A DNA stretch of 14,718 nt, taken from the IMG/VR virus record IMGVR_UViG_2737471861_000012, positions 1-14,718 of that record. One strand, 5' to 3'. The translations under genes and the position numbers were made by a program. Each line of letters starts with the position of its first letter. Within the stretch, counting starts at the first letter, position 1. Below, piece by piece: positions 1,914 through 11,473 of this stretch. The notes below the pieces were generated by a model that had not been told where the DNA came from, ran no database searches, and worked only from the letters and a program-made list of their open reading frames with translations. The stretch is from a virus. Lineage: Duplodnaviria; Heunggongvirae; Uroviricota; Caudoviricetes.

Positions 1914-2457
1914 GCATCACTGGAAAGTGGAAAAACAACCTGACTGGTACGTGAAAGCTGTCAGAAAAACTATCGCGGCATTGCCAGGTGGTTACGCTGA
2001 AGCTGCTGAGTGGCTGGATGTAACAGAGAACGCTTTATTCAACCGCCTTCGTGCCGATGGTGATCAGTTTTTTCCGTTGGGATGGGCAATGGTTTTACAG
2101 CGTGCGGCTAGTACTCATCACATTGCGGATGCTGTCGCACAGTCTGCTGGTGGGGTGTTTGTATCACTTCCTGAAATTGAGGAAGTAGAGAACGCTGATA
2201 TCAACCAACGTCTACTGGAAGTCATTGAACAGATCGGGAGTTACTCAAAGCAGATTCGTTCGGCAATCGAAGATGGGGTAGTGGAGCCACATGAACAGAC
2301 AGCAATTAATGATGAGTTGTATCTGTCAATTTCGAAGCTCCAGGAGCATGCAGCACTGTTCTACAAAATCTTCTGCGCTTCAGAAAAGAGTGACGCCCGC
2401 GAGTGTGCAGCTCCGGGCGTCGTGGCGTTTTGTGTCCGTGGAGAAACTAACGCATGA
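1906..2457 (+). CDS. CII-like early regulatory protein (function putative)
   Basis: 183-aa ORF with GTG start at 1906, preceded by AGGAGG and overlapping the cro stop; it sits where cII-type regulators lie in lambdoid phages. Family assignment is from position and general resemblance only. Confidence 0.6.
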   Translation: MGKHHWKVEKQPDWYVKAVRKTIAALPGGYAEAAEWLDVTENALFNRLRADGDQFFPLGWAMVLQRAASTHHIADAVAQSAGGVFVSLPEIEEVENADINQRLLEVIEQIGSYSKQIRSAIEDGVVEPHEQTAINDELYLSISKLQEHAALFYKIFCASEKSDARECAAPGVVAFCVRGETNA

Positions 2458-2782
2458 ACAGTTTAACGGCAAATAACCGTTTGTCGCAACAGTTGGTGGT
2501 CAGTGTCGCTGCACACCTGTTGTTACGGCATGAATGCAGATTACCAAATCACCTGGCTGTAAGTAACCACAGAGAACTTTACCTGACTGTGGGGGGCGAG
2601 TTGTGCAGGAACTTAACCGCTGGTTTCGTGACGGAAGAGGACTTTATGTTCATGTTATTCGTTGGGAGCCAGAAACACAGCGCGTTATCTATCTTCGCAA
2701 AGACTACCCGCATGAGTGCTTTAGTCCTTTGTGGAAATTCAGGCGTGATTTTGTTGAGTGTGAAGGACCACCAGCACATTGA
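2454..2782 (+). pseudogene. Possible frameshifted small gene: ATG 2454 (frame 0, ATGA overlap with upstream stop) joined at a G6 tract (2591-2596) to a frame +2 ORF ending 2782
   Basis: The frame-0 ORF starts with the same ATGA coupling seen across this operon. A protein-like frame +2 ORF (VQELNRWFRDGRGLYVHVIRWEPETQRVIYLRKDYPHECFSPLWKFRRDFVECEGPPAH) begins right after a GGGGGG homopolymer. Combined length would be about 109 aa. Confidence 0.25.
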
Positions 2783-3056
2783 TTCTGCCATTCCGGGACG
2801 TTACACTGTTCAGGCACCTTATAAAGCGGGTGCCGGGATTGGCGTCCTGGAATTGCATACGGCGACAATGGGCGCGTTAGCGTCTTTTTTGTTGCTACAG
2901 CTCAGCTATACCCAAATTATGGTGGGCTGGGTGGGGGCACCGAAAGGTGCGCCGGTTTCCGTATGCGCCGGTTACGCCAACCCTGCTCAGTTCACCACCA
3001 GCGAAATTGGCGTTTCCGGTGGTGGAAGTTATCCATTGCATACGGAGGCTGCCATC

Positions 3057-3602
3057 ATGGCTACGATCCCAACCCTCACTCAACCTGAAATTGCCATCGT
3101 TGATGGTCAGGCTGTTACTTCATCCCTGGCTGTAGCCAACTTCTTTTCCAAACGTCATGACGATGTACTGAAAAAGATCCGCACGCTTGAATGCTCCGCA
3201 TCATTCACTGCCCGCAATTTTTCGGTGAGTGATTACACCGATTGCACAGGCCGCAAACTACCTTGCTATCAAATAACCCGCGACGGCTTTGCGTTTCTTG
3301 CTATGGGTTTCACGGGGAAACGTGCTGCCCAGTTCAAAGAGGCATACATCAATGCCTTTAACCAGATGGAGAAACAGCTTTTAAAGCCCTCTGTACCGAG
3401 CGACGTTGCACATAACGCCAGCGTTCTCTGTTCCTACATTTCATCAATTCATCAGGTCTGGCTGCAGCAGCTTTATCCTATGTTGGCAAAAGCCGAATCT
3501 CCGCTGGCTGTTAGCTTGTATGACTATATTAATGATGCTTCGGCACTGGCCTGCCTCATAAATTTGTCGCTGAACCCTTCAGAGGTAAGGGGGCGCAAAT
3601 GA
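3057..3602 (+). CDS. rha: Rha-family phage regulatory protein
   Basis: N-terminus MATIPTLTQPEIAIVDGQAVTSSLAVANFFSKRHDDVLKKIRTLE matches the Rha domain pattern; GGAGG RBS at about 3043-3047. The 382-aa ORF in the track (2454-3602) is judged an artefactual upstream extension in the same frame. Confidence 0.8.
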   Translation: MATIPTLTQPEIAIVDGQAVTSSLAVANFFSKRHDDVLKKIRTLECSASFTARNFSVSDYTDCTGRKLPCYQITRDGFAFLAMGFTGKRAAQFKEAYINAFNQMEKQLLKPSVPSDVAHNASVLCSYISSIHQVWLQQLYPMLAKAESPLAVSLYDYINDASALACLINLSLNPSEVRGRK

Positions 3603-3823: not shown

Positions 3824-4638
3824 GTATGGAGCTGATGGTTAAAGCGATGAAAATTCGAGTGGGTAATCCATTGCGAAAACTGGTTCTGATCAAGCTGGCT
3901 GATAATGCCAGCGATCAGGGTGAGTGCTGGCCCAGCTACCAGCATATTGCTGACCAGTGCGAGATTAGCAAACGTTCTGTGATGAATCATATTGCGGCCC
4001 TTTGTGAGTCCGGGCTGGTAAAAAAAGTCACCCGGAAAGGTGAAAAAGGTAACTCAAGTAATATCTATCTCCTTCATCTGGATGGTGCAGGAGATTCACT
4101 AGGGGGTAGTGCAAATAATTCACTATCTGGTGCAGCAAATTCACCAGGTAGTGCAGGAGTTGCACCAGGGGGTGGTGCAGGAGATTCACCCAGAACCAGT
4201 CACTCTTTTGAACCAGTCAAAGAACCAGTCAATGAACCAATAGCTGTTGGTGCATCAGTTGATGAGTCCATGCGAGTTCGTTCAAACCGACCGGAATACT
4301 CTCCGGAGTTTGAGCAGGCATGGCTGGCATATCCCAAACGTGCTGGTGGCAATTCAAAATCTGCAGCCTTCAAAGCCTGGAAAGCCCGTTTGAATGAGGG
4401 GGTAAAACCCGAAACCATGCTGGAAGGTGTGAAACGCTACGCGGGCTGGGTATCTGCGATGGGTAACAGCGGCACACAATTTGTGAAACAGGCTGTCACG
4501 TTCTTTGGTCCGGATCGTCATTTCGAAGAATCCTGGGAAGTTCCTGCGGTATCTGCAGCCAGACGCGAGGACCCGTACTTCAAAGCCAGTTACGACAACG
4601 TGGACTACAGCCAGATCCCGGCAGGATTCAGGGGGTGA
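3820..4638 (+). CDS. O-like replication initiator: N-terminal winged-helix DNA-binding domain, Gly/Ser/Ala-rich linker encoded by iterons, C-terminal domain
   Basis: Start ATG 3820 with GGAGG upstream. N-terminal LRKLVLIKLADNASDQGECWPSYQHIADQCEISKRSVMNHIAALCESGLVKK resembles HTH_36-type phage replication initiator domains. An internal array of 5 iteron-like repeats lies in the linker-coding region, as in lambda O. Confidence 0.65.
   Translation: MSMELMVKAMKIRVGNPLRKLVLIKLADNASDQGECWPSYQHIADQCEISKRSVMNHIAALCESGLVKKVTRKGEKGNSSNIYLLHLDGAGDSLGGSANNSLSGAANSPGSAGVAPGGGAGDSPRTSHSFEPVKEPVNEPIAVGASVDESMRVRSNRPEYSPEFEQAWLAYPKRAGGNSKSAAFKAWKARLNEGVKPETMLEGVKRYAGWVSAMGNSGTQFVKQAVTFFGPDRHFEESWEVPAVSAARREDPYFKASYDNVDYSQIPAGFRG
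4085..4189. repeat. Iteron array (candidate origin of replication) inside the O-like gene
   Basis: Five copies of GTGCA-N5/6-T(T/G)CAC (gtgcaggagattcac 4085-4099, gtgcaaataattcac 4109-4123, gtgcagcaaattcac 4130-4144, gtgcaggagttgcac 4151-4165, gtgcaggagattcac 4175-4189) at 21-24 bp spacing, followed by three GAACCAGTCA repeats (about 4191-4235). Confidence 0.55.
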
Positions 4639-4640
4639 TT

Positions 4641-5129
4641 ATGAGTCTTTTGAATGAAGTTCAGAAATTCATTGAAGCCCATCCGGGGTGTACTTCCGGA
4701 GACATTGCGGATGCTTTTGCTGGTTACTCACGGCAGCGCGTTCTGCAGTCAGCAAGCAAGTTACGTCAGAGTGGGCGTGTGGCTCACCGTTGTGAAGGAG
4801 ATACACGCAGACATTTCCCGCGCCTGACTGAGAGAGCGCAGGAGCCGGAACCACAATCTGTTCGTGAAACCAGACCTGTGCGCAATTTCTATGTCGGCAC
4901 TAACGATCCCCGTGTGATTTTGTGCCTGACCCGCCAGGCTGAAGAACTGGAGTCCAGGGGCTTATACCGTCGTGCTGCAACGGTGTGGATGGCGGCATTC
5001 CGTGAAAGCCACTCCCAGCCAGAACGAAACAATTTTCTGGCGCGTCGTGAGCAGTGTTTACGGAAAAGCAGCAAGTGCGCTGTATCGGGTGATGAGTGGT
5101 ATCTGTCAGGGAATTACGTGGGGGCTTAA
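4641..5129 (+). CDS. PerC-family transcriptional regulator-like protein with N-terminal winged-helix-like extension
   Basis: Segment AEELESRGLYRRAATVWMAAFRESHSQPERNNFLARREQCLRK fits the PerC/Pch signature (LE..GLWRRAA..W ... RR..CL). Start ATG 4641, 3 nt after the previous stop. Confidence 0.55.
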   Translation: MSLLNEVQKFIEAHPGCTSGDIADAFAGYSRQRVLQSASKLRQSGRVAHRCEGDTRRHFPRLTERAQEPEPQSVRETRPVRNFYVGTNDPRVILCLTRQAEELESRGLYRRAATVWMAAFRESHSQPERNNFLARREQCLRKSSKCAVSGDEWYLSGNYVGA

Positions 5130-5455
5130 TGACGACGTTAACTCAATGCCAGCAGCAGGTGCTGGATATGCTGATTTCTTATCAGAAAGAACGTGGTTTC
5201 CCGCCAACCAATCAGGAGGTGGCAGCCATGCTGGGATACCGTTCGGTGAATGCAGCGGTGGAGCATCTTCGCGCACTGGAGAAAAAAGGCGTCATCACGA
5301 TAAAGCGTGGCGTGGCCCGGGGTATCACGTTTCATACCACAGTGAAGGACGACGACAGCGAGGCAGCCGGGATTATCCGCGCACTGCTTGCCGGTGAGGA
5401 AAACGCCAGACTGCGTGCAGCCCACTGGTTACATGAGAGGGGCCTGAAAGTATGA
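5129..5455 (+). CDS. LexA DNA-binding-domain-like protein (winged helix only, no peptidase domain)
   Basis: LTQCQQQVLDMLISYQKERGFPPTNQEVAAMLGYRSVNAAVEHLRALEKKGVITIKRGVARGI closely follows the LexA N-terminal domain pattern (PPT..E....G..S.NAA.EHL.AL..KG.I). ATG overlaps the previous stop (TAATG). No GDSM/KR peptidase motifs. Confidence 0.65.
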   Translation: MTTLTQCQQQVLDMLISYQKERGFPPTNQEVAAMLGYRSVNAAVEHLRALEKKGVITIKRGVARGITFHTTVKDDDSEAAGIIRALLAGEENARLRAAHWLHERGLKV

Positions 5456-7655: not shown

Positions 7656-7672
7656 TTTTGTGGAGAAAGTTG

Positions 7673-8035
7673 ATGCGTGATATTCAGATGGTTCTGGATC
7701 GTTGGGGTGCATGGGCGGCGAGTGATAGTTCTGGGGTAGACTATTCGCCTATAGCTGCTGGGTTTAAAGGGCTTCTTCCCTATACAAGCAAAACACGTCA
7801 GGCTTGTTCAGATAGTGATGCATTAATTATTGAAGGTTGTCTTGCTCGTCTAAAGCAAAAAAGACCTGAAGAACACTCGCTTCTTGTTGCCCATTACCTA
7901 TACGGTATCTCTAAAAGAAAGCTCGCTAAAGCTCGCAAAAAGGATGAGAAAATAATACGCATTGAGATACAGATGGCTGAGGGATTTATAGAAGGTTGTC
8001 TAGCTATTCTAAATGTTAGCTTAGATATGGATTAA
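7673..8035 (+). CDS. Q-like late-gene antiterminator (small Q family of the QuuD / phage 82 type)
   Basis: MRDIQMVLDRWGAWAA...AGFKGL...IIEGCLARLK...AEGFIEGCLAILNVSLDMD matches the small Q antiterminator pattern; GGAGAAAG RBS. The 3-prime two-thirds of the gene is AT-rich like the downstream cargo. Confidence 0.75.
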   Translation: MRDIQMVLDRWGAWAASDSSGVDYSPIAAGFKGLLPYTSKTRQACSDSDALIIEGCLARLKQKRPEEHSLLVAHYLYGISKRKLAKARKKDEKIIRIEIQMAEGFIEGCLAILNVSLDMD

Positions 8036-8078
8036 TATCTTGGTTTGGATAAGCAGGTGTGCTTGCACCTGCTTAATA

Positions 8079-8531
8079 TTATATGTGGGGTAATATCCAG
8101 TTTATTTTCCTCCAGGTACTTGCAAATGAAACTATTGATACGATCAGGGTCGAGAAACCATATAAGGTTAGGGCGAAATCAAGTCTTACAGAGGTAATGG
8201 TGATTTTTTCATTTATAAACATTGCTATCAGCGGGAAAATACATGCTAATATTAAGGTAACTCCCGTAGATAACAGGTTATGAATAATTTTAGGTAAAAT
8301 CTTGTTTTGTTTTAAAGCAAAAATAATTCCATCAGTACTTGAACTTGCAGAACTGAAGATGGAAATAGCGGCCAATACAAAACCAAACAAAATGCCTGCC
8401 ACCGTAGATAACACTCCGGCTGTACTTAAGATATCAGAGTGAGCCATAGGCGCTAGGTATTTCCCAAGCACCCAAGCTAACAGCCCACTGATAACTATGT
8501 TAATTAAAACTTTAATAAGCATAATCATCAT
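8079..8531 (-). CDS. Small integral membrane protein, four predicted TM helices; second gene of the AT-rich cassette (RexB-like architecture, hypothesis)
   Basis: 147-150 aa with four hydrophobic segments (IKVLINIVISGLLAWVLGKYL; ILSTAGVLSTVAGILFGFVLAAISIF; LSTGVTLILACIFPLIAMFI; LDFALTLYGFSTLIVSIVSFA). Likely start is the ATG at 8520-8522, preceded by AAGGA, 14 nt downstream of the partner gene. AT-rich codon usage unlike the flanking genes. Confidence 0.7.
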   Translation of the reverse strand: MMIMLIKVLINIVISGLLAWVLGKYLAPMAHSDILSTAGVLSTVAGILFGFVLAAISIFSSASSSTDGIIFALKQNKILPKIIHNLLSTGVTLILACIFPLIAMFINEKITITSVRLDFALTLYGFSTLIVSIVSFASTWRKINWILPHI

Positions 8532-8545
8532 CCTTAAAAATAAGA

Positions 8546-9478
8546 TCAGATTTCATATTGCTTTAAATACTGACCATGTTCAATTTTAGCACTGATCAAG
8601 GCAGTACGCACATCTGTTTCTTTTGCGTAGCCATCTTTTGTGTTAATGTTTTTTTCACTGATCAGAACTTGATTGAGAAGACTCCTTGAATGAGTATTTT
8701 TAGGTTCAGTGACATTAGCTTTACGTAATAAGTGAGGAACTTTTTCTATTAATTCCTTTATTCCACTTTTTACTTCATCACTGAGATAACCACGGATTAA
8801 TTTACGTTGCGATGCTCTACCTCTAAGTGATAGTTTTAAATGCGAACCGCCCATCCCAGCCATCATTTCAATCATACTTTTGGAAAATGAATTCGAAAGG
8901 TCATAATCCGTTGCGCTAAAATTACGTGGAGCGGCGAGTGTAATTTCACAGCTACGTAAAGTGCTTCCTGTTTCAAGTAGTTCTTTTACACTTTCTTTTT
9001 TCCAAATTGCCTCAAACGCTACAGGTTTGTTTTCTTCAGAAAAATTGAATAAAAGAAATGCTAAATCGGAAACTTTAGGTCCTAAATGATTTTGAGATAA
9101 AACAAGAATGTCTTTCTTATAGTAGTAAATAAAATAAGTACGTTCGACTATATATTTTTTATCATCTAACGGAATATTGTGCTCATCCCAATTTTCATCA
9201 CCAATATAAGGTAAGTGGAAACCATCACGAGAGCATGATAGATAACCAAAATAGAACTCCGCCTGTGCGTCTTTTTCTAAGAATACAATCTTTAATTTTT
9301 TCTTATCAAACTCAGCGGTATAAGAATTTTGCGAAGGTGTAACAATGGTTGTATACATGTTGTCAAATGCAAGTTGTGCATTTGATGTAGTTGACTTCGT
9401 TCCTGAGGAGCTTTGGAAGAAACCGATACGCATTTTTTTTTGTTTAGTTAGTGGCGCGGAAGTGGCTGTAGTAGTCAT
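8546..9478 (-). CDS. Hypothetical soluble ~310-aa protein; first gene of the AT-rich two-gene cassette (candidate abortive-infection / exclusion component, RexA-like by architecture only)
   Basis: Long minus-strand ORF with an AAGGG RBS-like sequence upstream; Lys/Tyr/Asn-rich and AT-rich; no nucleotidyltransferase, HEPN or TIR motif recognisable by eye. Opposite orientation to all flanking phage genes. Confidence 0.7.
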   Translation of the reverse strand: MTTTATSAPLTKQKKMRIGFFQSSSGTKSTTSNAQLAFDNMYTTIVTPSQNSYTAEFDKKKLKIVFLEKDAQAEFYFGYLSCSRDGFHLPYIGDENWDEHNIPLDDKKYIVERTYFIYYYKKDILVLSQNHLGPKVSDLAFLLFNFSEENKPVAFEAIWKKESVKELLETGSTLRSCEITLAAPRNFSATDYDLSNSFSKSMIEMMAGMGGSHLKLSLRGRASQRKLIRGYLSDEVKSGIKELIEKVPHLLRKANVTEPKNTHSRSLLNQVLISEKNINTKDGYAKETDVRTALISAKIEHGQYLKQYEI

Positions 9479-9778
9479 TAAAATTACCCTTTATTATCCT
9501 TTTGAATCAATGGGTTGTGATTTGTTAATGATCCTGGGTTCGTTGCATATGCATAATCTATCAAAAAAAACTTACGCGGTCCGCATTTTCTCGTTTACTG
9601 TGTTAAGAGTGGTTACTTCGCCACACAGCTTAAACCCGCCGTCGAGCGGTTTTTTTGTACCTGTAAACCTGGTGCAGTACAGTAAACACGCTGGTGGTCG
9701 TGAATACTGACTTTTTATCTTGCTGGCTTTTTAGACAAGAGTTATTGGTATGTCATGTTAACCAGAAGGGAAAAAGAC

Positions 9779-10132: not shown

Positions 10133-11179
10133 ATGAAAAATACTGTAAAAATAAACAGTGTTGATTTAATCAACGCTGATTGCCTGCATTTTATTCAGTC
10201 CCTGCCTGATGATTCCATTGACCTGATTGTTACCGATCCGCCGTACTTCAAGGTGAAACCCAACGGCTGGGACAATCAGTGGAAAGGGGACGAAGATTAC
10301 CTTAAGTGGCTGGACCACTGTCTGGCCCAGTTCTGGCGGGTGTTAAAACCTGCCGGAAGCCTTTACCTGTTCTGTGGTCATCGCCTGGCATCTGATACCG
10401 AAATCATGATGCGTGAACGCTTTAATGTACTGAACCACATTATCTGGGCGAAGCCGTCCGGACGCTGGAACGGGTGCAACAAGGAAAGCCTGCGGGCGTA
10501 TTTCCCGGCAACAGAACGCATTCTGTTTGCCGAACATTATCAGGGGCCATATCAGCCAAAAAATGACGGCTATGCGGCAAAAGGGCGCGAGCTTAAGCAG
10601 CACGTAATGGCCCCGCTGATTGCTTACTTTCGTGATGCGCGTGAATCACTGGGGATAACGTCAAAACAGATAGCAGAAGCCACCGGAAAGAAAAACATGG
10701 CTTCGCACTGGTTTGGTACCAGTCAGTGGCAGTTACCGAATGAGGCCGATTACAGTAAACTGCAGGCGTTGTTTGCGCGTGTTGCGGCAGAAAAACACCA
10801 GCGCGGTGAACTGGAGCAGCCACACCACCAGCTGGTCAGCACATACAGCGAACTGAACCGGCAATATGCCAGCCTGCTGGAGGAATACAAATCACTGCGG
10901 CGTTATTTTTCCGTATCGGCTGTTGTTCCTTATACGGATGTCTGGACGCACAAGCCCGTGCAGTTTTATCCGGGTAAGCATCCCTGTGAAAAACCGGCGG
11001 ATATGTTGCGTCAGATAATTACTGCCAGCAGCCGTCCGGGCGATTTGGTCGCAGATTTTTTTATGGGGTCGGGGTCGACAATAAAAGCGGCACTGTCGCT
11101 GGGACGCAGGGCGATTGGCGTGGAACTGGAAGAGGAGCGTTTTAATCAGACGGTCAGAGAAATAACGAAAGATTTTTAA
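10133..11179 (+). CDS. Orphan DNA methyltransferase (beta-class N6-adenine or N4-cytosine)
   Basis: DPPY catalytic motif (LIVTDPPYF) is N-terminal and the FxGxG SAM-binding motif (FFMGSGST) is C-terminal; no adjacent restriction endonuclease gene. Confidence 0.85.
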   Translation: MKNTVKINSVDLINADCLHFIQSLPDDSIDLIVTDPPYFKVKPNGWDNQWKGDEDYLKWLDHCLAQFWRVLKPAGSLYLFCGHRLASDTEIMMRERFNVLNHIIWAKPSGRWNGCNKESLRAYFPATERILFAEHYQGPYQPKNDGYAAKGRELKQHVMAPLIAYFRDARESLGITSKQIAEATGKKNMASHWFGTSQWQLPNEADYSKLQALFARVAAEKHQRGELEQPHHQLVSTYSELNRQYASLLEEYKSLRRYFSVSAVVPYTDVWTHKPVQFYPGKHPCEKPADMLRQIITASSRPGDLVADFFMGSGSTIKAALSLGRRAIGVELEEERFNQTVREITKDF

Positions 11180-11396: not shown

Positions 11397-11473
11397 GCGG
11401 GTATCGTATAATGGCTATTACCTCAGCTTTCCAGGCTGATGATGTGGGTTCGATTCCCGCCACCCGCTCTCCA
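11397..11473 (+). tRNA. tRNA-Gly(UCC)-like gene
   Basis: Cloverleaf can be drawn: acceptor GCGGGTA/CACCCGC (one A-C mismatch at 7-66), D-arm GTAT-AATGGCTA-TTAC, anticodon stem TCAGC/GCTGA with loop TTTCCAG (anticodon TCC), T-arm GTGGG-TTCGATT-CCCGC. Very similar to my recollection of E. coli glyT, with a compensatory 6-67 base-pair change. 3-prime end reads TCTCCA rather than TCCA. Confidence 0.65.

Follow-up and report, generated by a model that had tools for sequence, protein, structure and literature searches.

Gene organisation of the cassette

The window is the whole stretch of 14,718 nucleotides that was analysed. Two adjacent open reading frames are carried by its minus strand, one for a protein of 310 residues and the other for a protein of 150 residues in its longest form (Table 1). 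These are the genes named in the original prediction, and both frames and their conservation as a pair were confirmed. The small gene is called from the start at 8522 in nearly all homologs, which gives 147 residues, and AAGGA stands 8 nt upstream of this start. A gap of 14 nt had been given between the two genes. This holds for the 150-residue frame, but with the 147-residue start that was quoted the gap is 23 nt. The pair is kept intact and adjacent in many taxa down to roughly 20–45% identity. Therefore, the two genes are real, and chance reading frames in AT-rich DNA were ruled out by this conservation across genera. The block is AT-rich as first described, with a GC content of 0.32–0.37 over approximately 8000–9600 against 0.50–0.58 in most of the flanking windows of the profile. 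It had also been described as opposite in orientation to every flanking gene. This is correct locally, but the cI-like repressor gene (863–1555) lies on the minus strand too.

Several putative control elements accompany the two genes. The hairpin between the stops of Q and the small gene was found by a scan for terminator-like elements. It lies within the exchangeable segment, has a strong T-run on neither strand and is a probable terminator or insulator belonging to the cassette. Upstream of the large gene, a candidate sigma-70 promoter (–35 ATCACA, 17-nt spacer, –10 GATAAT) spans 9521–9493 on the minus strand. The promoter scan returned 8 sites against 6.6 ± 2.5 in shuffled sequences, that is, no enrichment, and the upstream region is poorly conserved among cassette variants. 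Therefore, the promoter assignment is tentative. The hairpin followed by eight T residues just beyond this region is conserved in cdtI, Citrobacter and P0030-type loci, and it is possibly an insulator against read-in.

Table 1. Features of the cassette and its boundaries in the window.
Feature	Position	Strand	Basis or remark
Antiterminator Q gene, left boundary	7658–8035	+	ORF; "antiterminator Q family protein" in near-identical loci; PF06530 in related loci
Exchangeable cargo segment, low GC	8032–9600		blastn break-points against three loci; GC profile
Hairpin, perfect 11-bp stem	8050–8075		Separates the stop of Q (8035) from that of the small gene (8079); the two genes converge
rexB-like gene	8079–8522	–	147-residue membrane protein, four long helices; alternative ATG at 8531 gives 150 residues
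rexA-like gene	8546–9478	–	310-residue soluble protein; Pfam DUF6731; predicted RexA fold
AT-rich upstream region, cassette-specific, about 85 nt	9479–9565	–	Shine-Dalgarno sequence; candidate sigma-70 promoter
Hairpin with T8	9566–9586	–	Just upstream of the cassette promoter region; terminator-like scan
Conserved 54-nt block, right boundary, outside the cassette	9601–9654	+	Hairpin and T-run at 9638–9650

An exchangeable cargo slot downstream of Q

The cassette had been drawn from 8046 to 9560. The blastn break-points against loci with other cargo show an exchangeable segment that is slightly wider, from about 8032 to 9562 or 9600. The 54-nt block at its right boundary keeps 98% identity even when the downstream genes differ, and it is present in more than half of the E. 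coli genomes, often alone. In DLP12, the block (2501–2561 of the locus examined) precedes the holin gene essD by about 120 nt. It is probably a Q-dependent late-operon leader/terminator common to many lambdoid prophages. With the block read as this leader, the cassette therefore sits between Q and the site of action of Q.

The genes to the right of the cassette are all on the plus strand and comprise a 75-residue ORF, a DNA methyltransferase gene (10133–11179), a tRNA-Gly gene with the anticodon tcc (11397–11469) and then the lysis genes. The site had been placed between Q and the lysis genes. The cassette does follow Q, but it is not directly beside the lysis genes. Because the block, the 75-residue ORF, the methyltransferase and the tRNA-Gly intervene, it is better described as spanning the interval from the stop of Q to the 54-nt block.

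The flanks were found by megablast in 3,018 of 5,426 complete E. coli genomes, and the full cassette in just 18. All 18 are annotated with a "DUF6731 family protein" and a "hypothetical protein". With a more sensitive nucleotide search, 96 genomes were seen to carry the cassette in one form or another. The slot of other prophages, whose morphogenesis modules differ, holds a version of the pair with 47% identity (313 and 149 residues). A version with 62% identity, orf54/orf53, is located at the Q junction of phage cdtI. These comparisons document a slot for cargo between Q and the probable late leader in E. coli lambdoid prophages.

The same slot of E. coli E21845/O/A contains an unrelated minus-strand gene for a protein of 339 residues, WP_000357056.1 (3166–4185 of its locus). 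This protein has one hydrophobic segment and matched no Pfam or PADLOC family. It could be another prophage accessory or defence gene.

The large protein

The large protein scores 44 bits (E = 2.6e-11; Pfam gathering cut-off 27) with Pfam DUF6731 (PF20505) over residues 12–273, and it also matches phrog_7651. Identical copies are named "DUF6731 family protein" in RefSeq. No PADLOC model matched it, and DUF6731 was not mentioned in the literature searched. A match to NCBIfam Lart1 was discarded as noise (16.6 bits against a cut-off of 500).

The original prediction likened the pair to RexA and RexB of lambda and proposed a comparison with Rex and defence profiles. This comparison with Pfam and PADLOC gave no direct Rex match. 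The large protein was not recognised by the RexA models PF15969 and PDLC02339, whereas lambda RexA itself, used as a positive control, gave E values of 1e-97 and 9e-110. BLASTP against lambda RexA was non-significant (E = 0.32). The profile of the large-protein family aligned to the RexA profile with E values of 0.0096 and 0.0047 and a probability of 4–7.5%, which is sub-significant, and the RexA profile limits this sequence-level test with its four sequences. It is shallow because a scan of viral contigs with RexA gave almost only identical copies. The corresponding scan of genome contigs with the large-family profile gave three loci.

BLASTP and hhalign repeatedly chose one collinear block, residues 89–160 of the window protein against 65–139 of RexA. 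In this block, HLGPKVSDLAFLL is paired with VFGPTTSDLTDFL and VAFEAIWK with VQIEPLMR, and the block stops at the RexA hinge. Candidate shared positions are "G-P-x-x-S-D-L" and "F-x-P-hydrophobic" at the hinge. RexA was not found when PDB sequences were searched with two large-family profiles. One of them gave an IF3 match (E = 0.8) that was dismissed as chance, and the second profile returned nothing.

An AlphaFold2 model of the large protein was obtained from a 39-sequence alignment (pLDDT 83.2, pTM 0.73). In the Foldseek search of this model against the PDB, lambda RexA (8TWQ_B) was the first match (E = 1.5e-6, probability 1.00), followed by RdgC. Two independent PDB fold searches agreed. 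The model runs from an N-terminal multi-stranded sheet through an insertion of four strands and three helices to a C-terminal strand and a broken helix. This predicted layout is that of RexA, with its split globular domain, dimerisation domain and kinked C-terminal helix. The lower-ranked matches are the published structural relatives of RexA itself (PMC11077077). Among these relatives, RdgC (PDB 2OWL) and the kinetochore proteins CHL4/CENP-N and IML3 work without a membrane partner, and their biology is recombination control and the kinetochore. Membership of the RdgC family was rejected, as the similarity is much weaker than that to RexA.

The global TM-score of the model to RexA is low, at 0.35. 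This value would fit a different inter-domain angle between the model and RexA. RexA was crystallised in a closed form, and its AlphaFold prediction is open (PMC11077077). Because the profile comparison reaches only E values of 0.005–0.01, the link to RexA rests on the predicted structure, which suggests homology at the level of the fold.

The small protein

The sole family match of the small protein was phrog_8552. Its AlphaFold2 model (pLDDT 82) consists of four helices, at residues 2–22, 28–59, 75–102 and 114–143, and its four hydropathy segments occur at nearly the positions of those of RexB. Both results agree with the small four-TM membrane protein described at the outset. A basic loop between TM2 and TM3 is present in both proteins (K71/K74/K78 in the window and R68/R70/R71/K74/R76 in RexB). 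By the positive-inside rule, this central loop would be cytoplasmic. The model thus has the features expected of a RexB protein, namely about 145 residues, four TM helices and a basic central cytoplasmic loop. A match to MotA_ExbB was set aside as noise (E = 0.13, 12.5 bits, below cut-off).

The small protein matched neither of the RexB models PF15968 and PDLC02340 directly. BLASTP against lambda RexB was non-significant (E = 0.9), and a narrow family profile reached a probability of 0.45% against an alignment of 15 RexB sequences. An exhaustive family-profile search of 1.84 billion representatives yielded 51 relatives, and 45 of them were aligned into a diverse profile. This profile aligned to the RexB family with 86% probability (E = 4.8e-6), and the 64 aligned columns run from the end of TM1 via TM2 to the central loop. 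Reversed profiles as a null control gave 0.2%. Thirty block-shuffled RexB profiles stayed at or below 2.6%; they scored 12.6 ± 2.9 (maximum 19.0) against 34.8–39.0 for the real alignments. Moreover, 19 of the 45 relatives individually match PADLOC RexB (PDLC02340), the best with E = 6.3e-8. Homology to RexB is therefore detectable through a diverse profile and intermediate sequences, and it places the small protein in the RexB superfamily.

The small family is most conserved in TM2 and the central loop. Its core reads A-T-V-S-G-x-L-x-G-F-x-x-A-A-x-S-I-L in TM2 and N-M-K-K-T-G-H in the loop, and the RexB equivalents are A-G-T-M-I-A-I-L-I-A-A-L-T-F-L and K-I-R-E-Y-G-Y-M. Candidate shared positions are "S-G-x-L-x-G-F-x-x-A-A" of TM2 and, in the central loop, "K-T-G-H" against "E-Y-G-Y" of RexB.

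The fold matches of the small-protein model in BFVD were all weak (best E = 0.03), and lambda RexB was absent from the top 50. The second-best match was A0A0A7RXT6 of Mycobacterium phage Sbash (165 residues, E = 0.044, TM-score 0.48). It comes from the phage that encodes the Rex-like gp30/gp31 pair. Three members of the 45-member family also match the PADLOC candidate-system component PDC-M67B (best E = 6e-4), and none of the large-family members tested matched any PADLOC model.

The pair in other genomes

The original prediction noted that the larger soluble gene comes first and the small four-TM gene second, as in RexA/RexB. This co-oriented order was verified and is kept at every related locus examined, often with the two genes overlapping. 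Therefore, a DUF6731 protein and a membrane protein of the RexB superfamily form a conserved mobile two-gene module.

Pseudomonas phage AUS531phi provides a bridge between the window family and RexB. A distant gene of the DUF6731 family (E = 8.6e-13 to PF20505) was located in this phage by tblastn with the large protein. It comes immediately after the gene for the CI repressor and precedes an ORF for 118 residues (4713–5069 of the locus). The 118-residue protein matches PADLOC RexB with E = 2.9e-5, whereas the window protein gives no match. It also matches the small-protein family of the window with 93.8% probability (E = 1.7e-7, 98 columns). Both alignments share the same register, in which residue 35 of the window protein corresponds to residue 43 of RexB. 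The 118-residue protein has three hydrophobic segments and lacks an equivalent of TM1.

The pair also occurs in quite different surroundings. It adjoins the integrase in a 14.6-kb Vinavirales-type element of Vibrio, and a DUF6731 and RexB-like pair is present in the head module of a Mu-like prophage. On a short metagenomic contig, the small protein matches RexB at 2.9e-6 and its partner is a DUF6731 protein. An island with a ScaI-type restriction-modification system and the toxin-antitoxin pairs HicAB and ParE/RelB carries the pair as well, and its 293-residue partner matches the large family with 99.1% probability (E = 4.5e-19).

On the Klebsiella plasmid pKpvST101_3, the large gene (4001–4933 of the locus) has six in-frame stops and is likely a frameshifted pseudogene, and the small gene (4966–5370) is intact. 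This pair adjoins a superinfection-immunity gene and a PerC regulator gene.

Discussion

RexAB was the earliest abortive-infection system to be discovered. To our knowledge, its trigger and the step by which A activates B are still unresolved after 70 years. We consider it likely that an E. coli lambdoid prophage here carries, as cargo, a strongly diverged two-component module of the RexAB type for phage exclusion (abortive infection). An exclusion module of this kind had been predicted at the outset, and the prediction gains support from RexA as the top Foldseek match of the modelled large protein and from the 86% probability of the small-family profile against RexB. The pair is rated as very divergent because the Pfam and PADLOC models of RexA and RexB fail to match it and because it is located outside the immunity region. 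Since its proteins appear to be very distant relatives of lambda RexA and RexB, the pair probably protects the host against other phages by analogy.

Lambda RexA/RexB (PDB 8TWQ) and the window pair share no direct HMM or BLAST similarity, and the large protein of the window belongs to a different Pfam family from lambda RexA. Their locations differ as well. Lambda RexAB is found downstream of cI in the immunity operon, whereas the window pair occupies an AT-rich cassette of its own that separates Q from the probable late leader and lies some 6.5 kb away from the repressor gene. The location in the immunity region, cotranscribed with the repressor, that is characteristic of RexA is seen in AUS531phi.

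Five Rex-type systems have been described so far (PMC12894663). For RexABpp of P. putida (PP_5643/PP_5644), defence, DNA binding and RexB-dependent membrane damage have experimental support (PMC12894663, Sci Rep 2026), whereas the window pair is known from sequence and models. The P. putida proteins are also larger than those of the window (37.5 kDa for RexApp-His and more than 181 residues for RexBpp; PMC12894663). The Rex-like pairs of actinophages, Sbash gp30/gp31 and CarolAnn gp44/gp43, resemble the window pair in combining a cytoplasmic protein with a four-TM protein; they are lysogenically expressed, and membrane depolarisation has been proposed for them (PMC6426596, PMC6426606). Unlike the window pair, they act in Gram-positive hosts and have a RexA-like protein of 370–372 residues (PMC6426596, PMC6426606).

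Lambda RexAB, P. putida RexABpp and Sbash gp30/31 suggest a mechanism by analogy. In the lysogen, the pair would be driven by a promoter of its own. The 310-residue DUF6731 protein would be the counterpart of RexA, a cytoplasmic, two-domain sensor that by analogy may be dimeric and may bind DNA non-specifically. The 147-residue protein would be the counterpart of RexB, a four-helix effector in the inner membrane. Upon infection by a heterologous phage, the RexA-like protein would be activated and would act on the central cytoplasmic loop and TM2 region of the membrane protein. Membrane potential or integrity would then be lost, growth would stop and the infection would be aborted. When the prophage itself is induced, transcription reading through from the early operon might silence the cassette and so confer self-immunity.

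Three other readings of the pair are made less likely by its context and conservation. First, a pair homologous to Rex could serve mainly the biology of its own prophage rather than the exclusion of other phages. It could bias the choice between lysis and lysogeny, as RexA does independently of RexB, or it could protect against host-mediated death or proteolysis, which are roles reported for RexB. The pair next to cI in AUS531phi is in line with such a role, but we regard this reading as unlikely for the window. Here, the pair is far from the immunity region and occupies a swappable cargo slot, and its relatives are found in non-lambdoid contexts such as the Mu-like head module, the Vinavirales-type element and the restriction-modification/toxin-antitoxin island. 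Furthermore, the membrane partner is strictly co-inherited, which favours a joint function of A and B.

Second, the logic could be reversed as in gp30/gp31 of mycobacteriophage Butters, where the cytoplasmic RexA-like protein acts as toxic effector and is sequestered by the membrane protein until infection. This architecture is documented for one Rex-like system (PMC12894663), and the intact small gene beside a frameshifted large gene on the Klebsiella plasmid could be expected if the large protein were costly or toxic. We nevertheless judge this reading quite improbable for the window pair. The membrane protein is the effector in four of the five described Rex-type systems (PMC12894663). In addition, the most conserved parts of the small family, TM2 and the central loop, are shared with RexB, and Sbash gp31 loses its defence function when its central cytoplasmic loop is mutated (PMC6426596, PMC6426606). 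This pattern suits an effector or activated channel at least equally well. Third, a lysis-associated accessory, with a holin- or antiholin-like membrane protein and a regulator and no exclusion system, would suit the nearby late/lysis region and the holin-like size of a small multi-TM protein, but it is hardly credible and was rejected, given that the cassette opposes the late operon upstream of the leader block and about 2 kb from the lysis genes, is missing from most prophages that have these Q and lysis genes (present in 18 of about 3,000 genomes), has homologous pairs away from lysis genes and shows specific homology to RexA and RexB.

The reading as a divergent RexAB-type exclusion module can be extended to the whole family. 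We see roughly even chances that DUF6731 proteins and their small RexB-like partners represent a sizeable unrecognised branch of RexAB, and that the window pair is an active module of abortive infection, with a trigger specificity of its own, in a swappable slot. This branch would extend over Enterobacterales, Vibrio, Pseudomonas and other bacteria and would be carried by prophages, small integrative elements and defence islands. The assignment of DUF6731 and its four-TM partner to the RexA and RexB kinds provides a Pfam domain of unknown function with a probable role. It would also supply many naturally diverged A and B pairs for comparing how Rex systems work. If the assignment is true, the PADLOC (2.0) and Pfam Rex models under-call systems of the Rex type.

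Elsewhere in the window, two Rfam families are matched on the plus strand, isrK (RF01394, 61.8 bits) at 2814–2890 and C4 antisense RNA (RF01695, 80.7 bits) at 2915–3002. Both lie within the ORF at 2454–3602, whose C-terminal part is antirepressor-like. In a lambdoid prophage, this would represent an antisense-RNA/antirepressor immunity module of the P1/P7 type.
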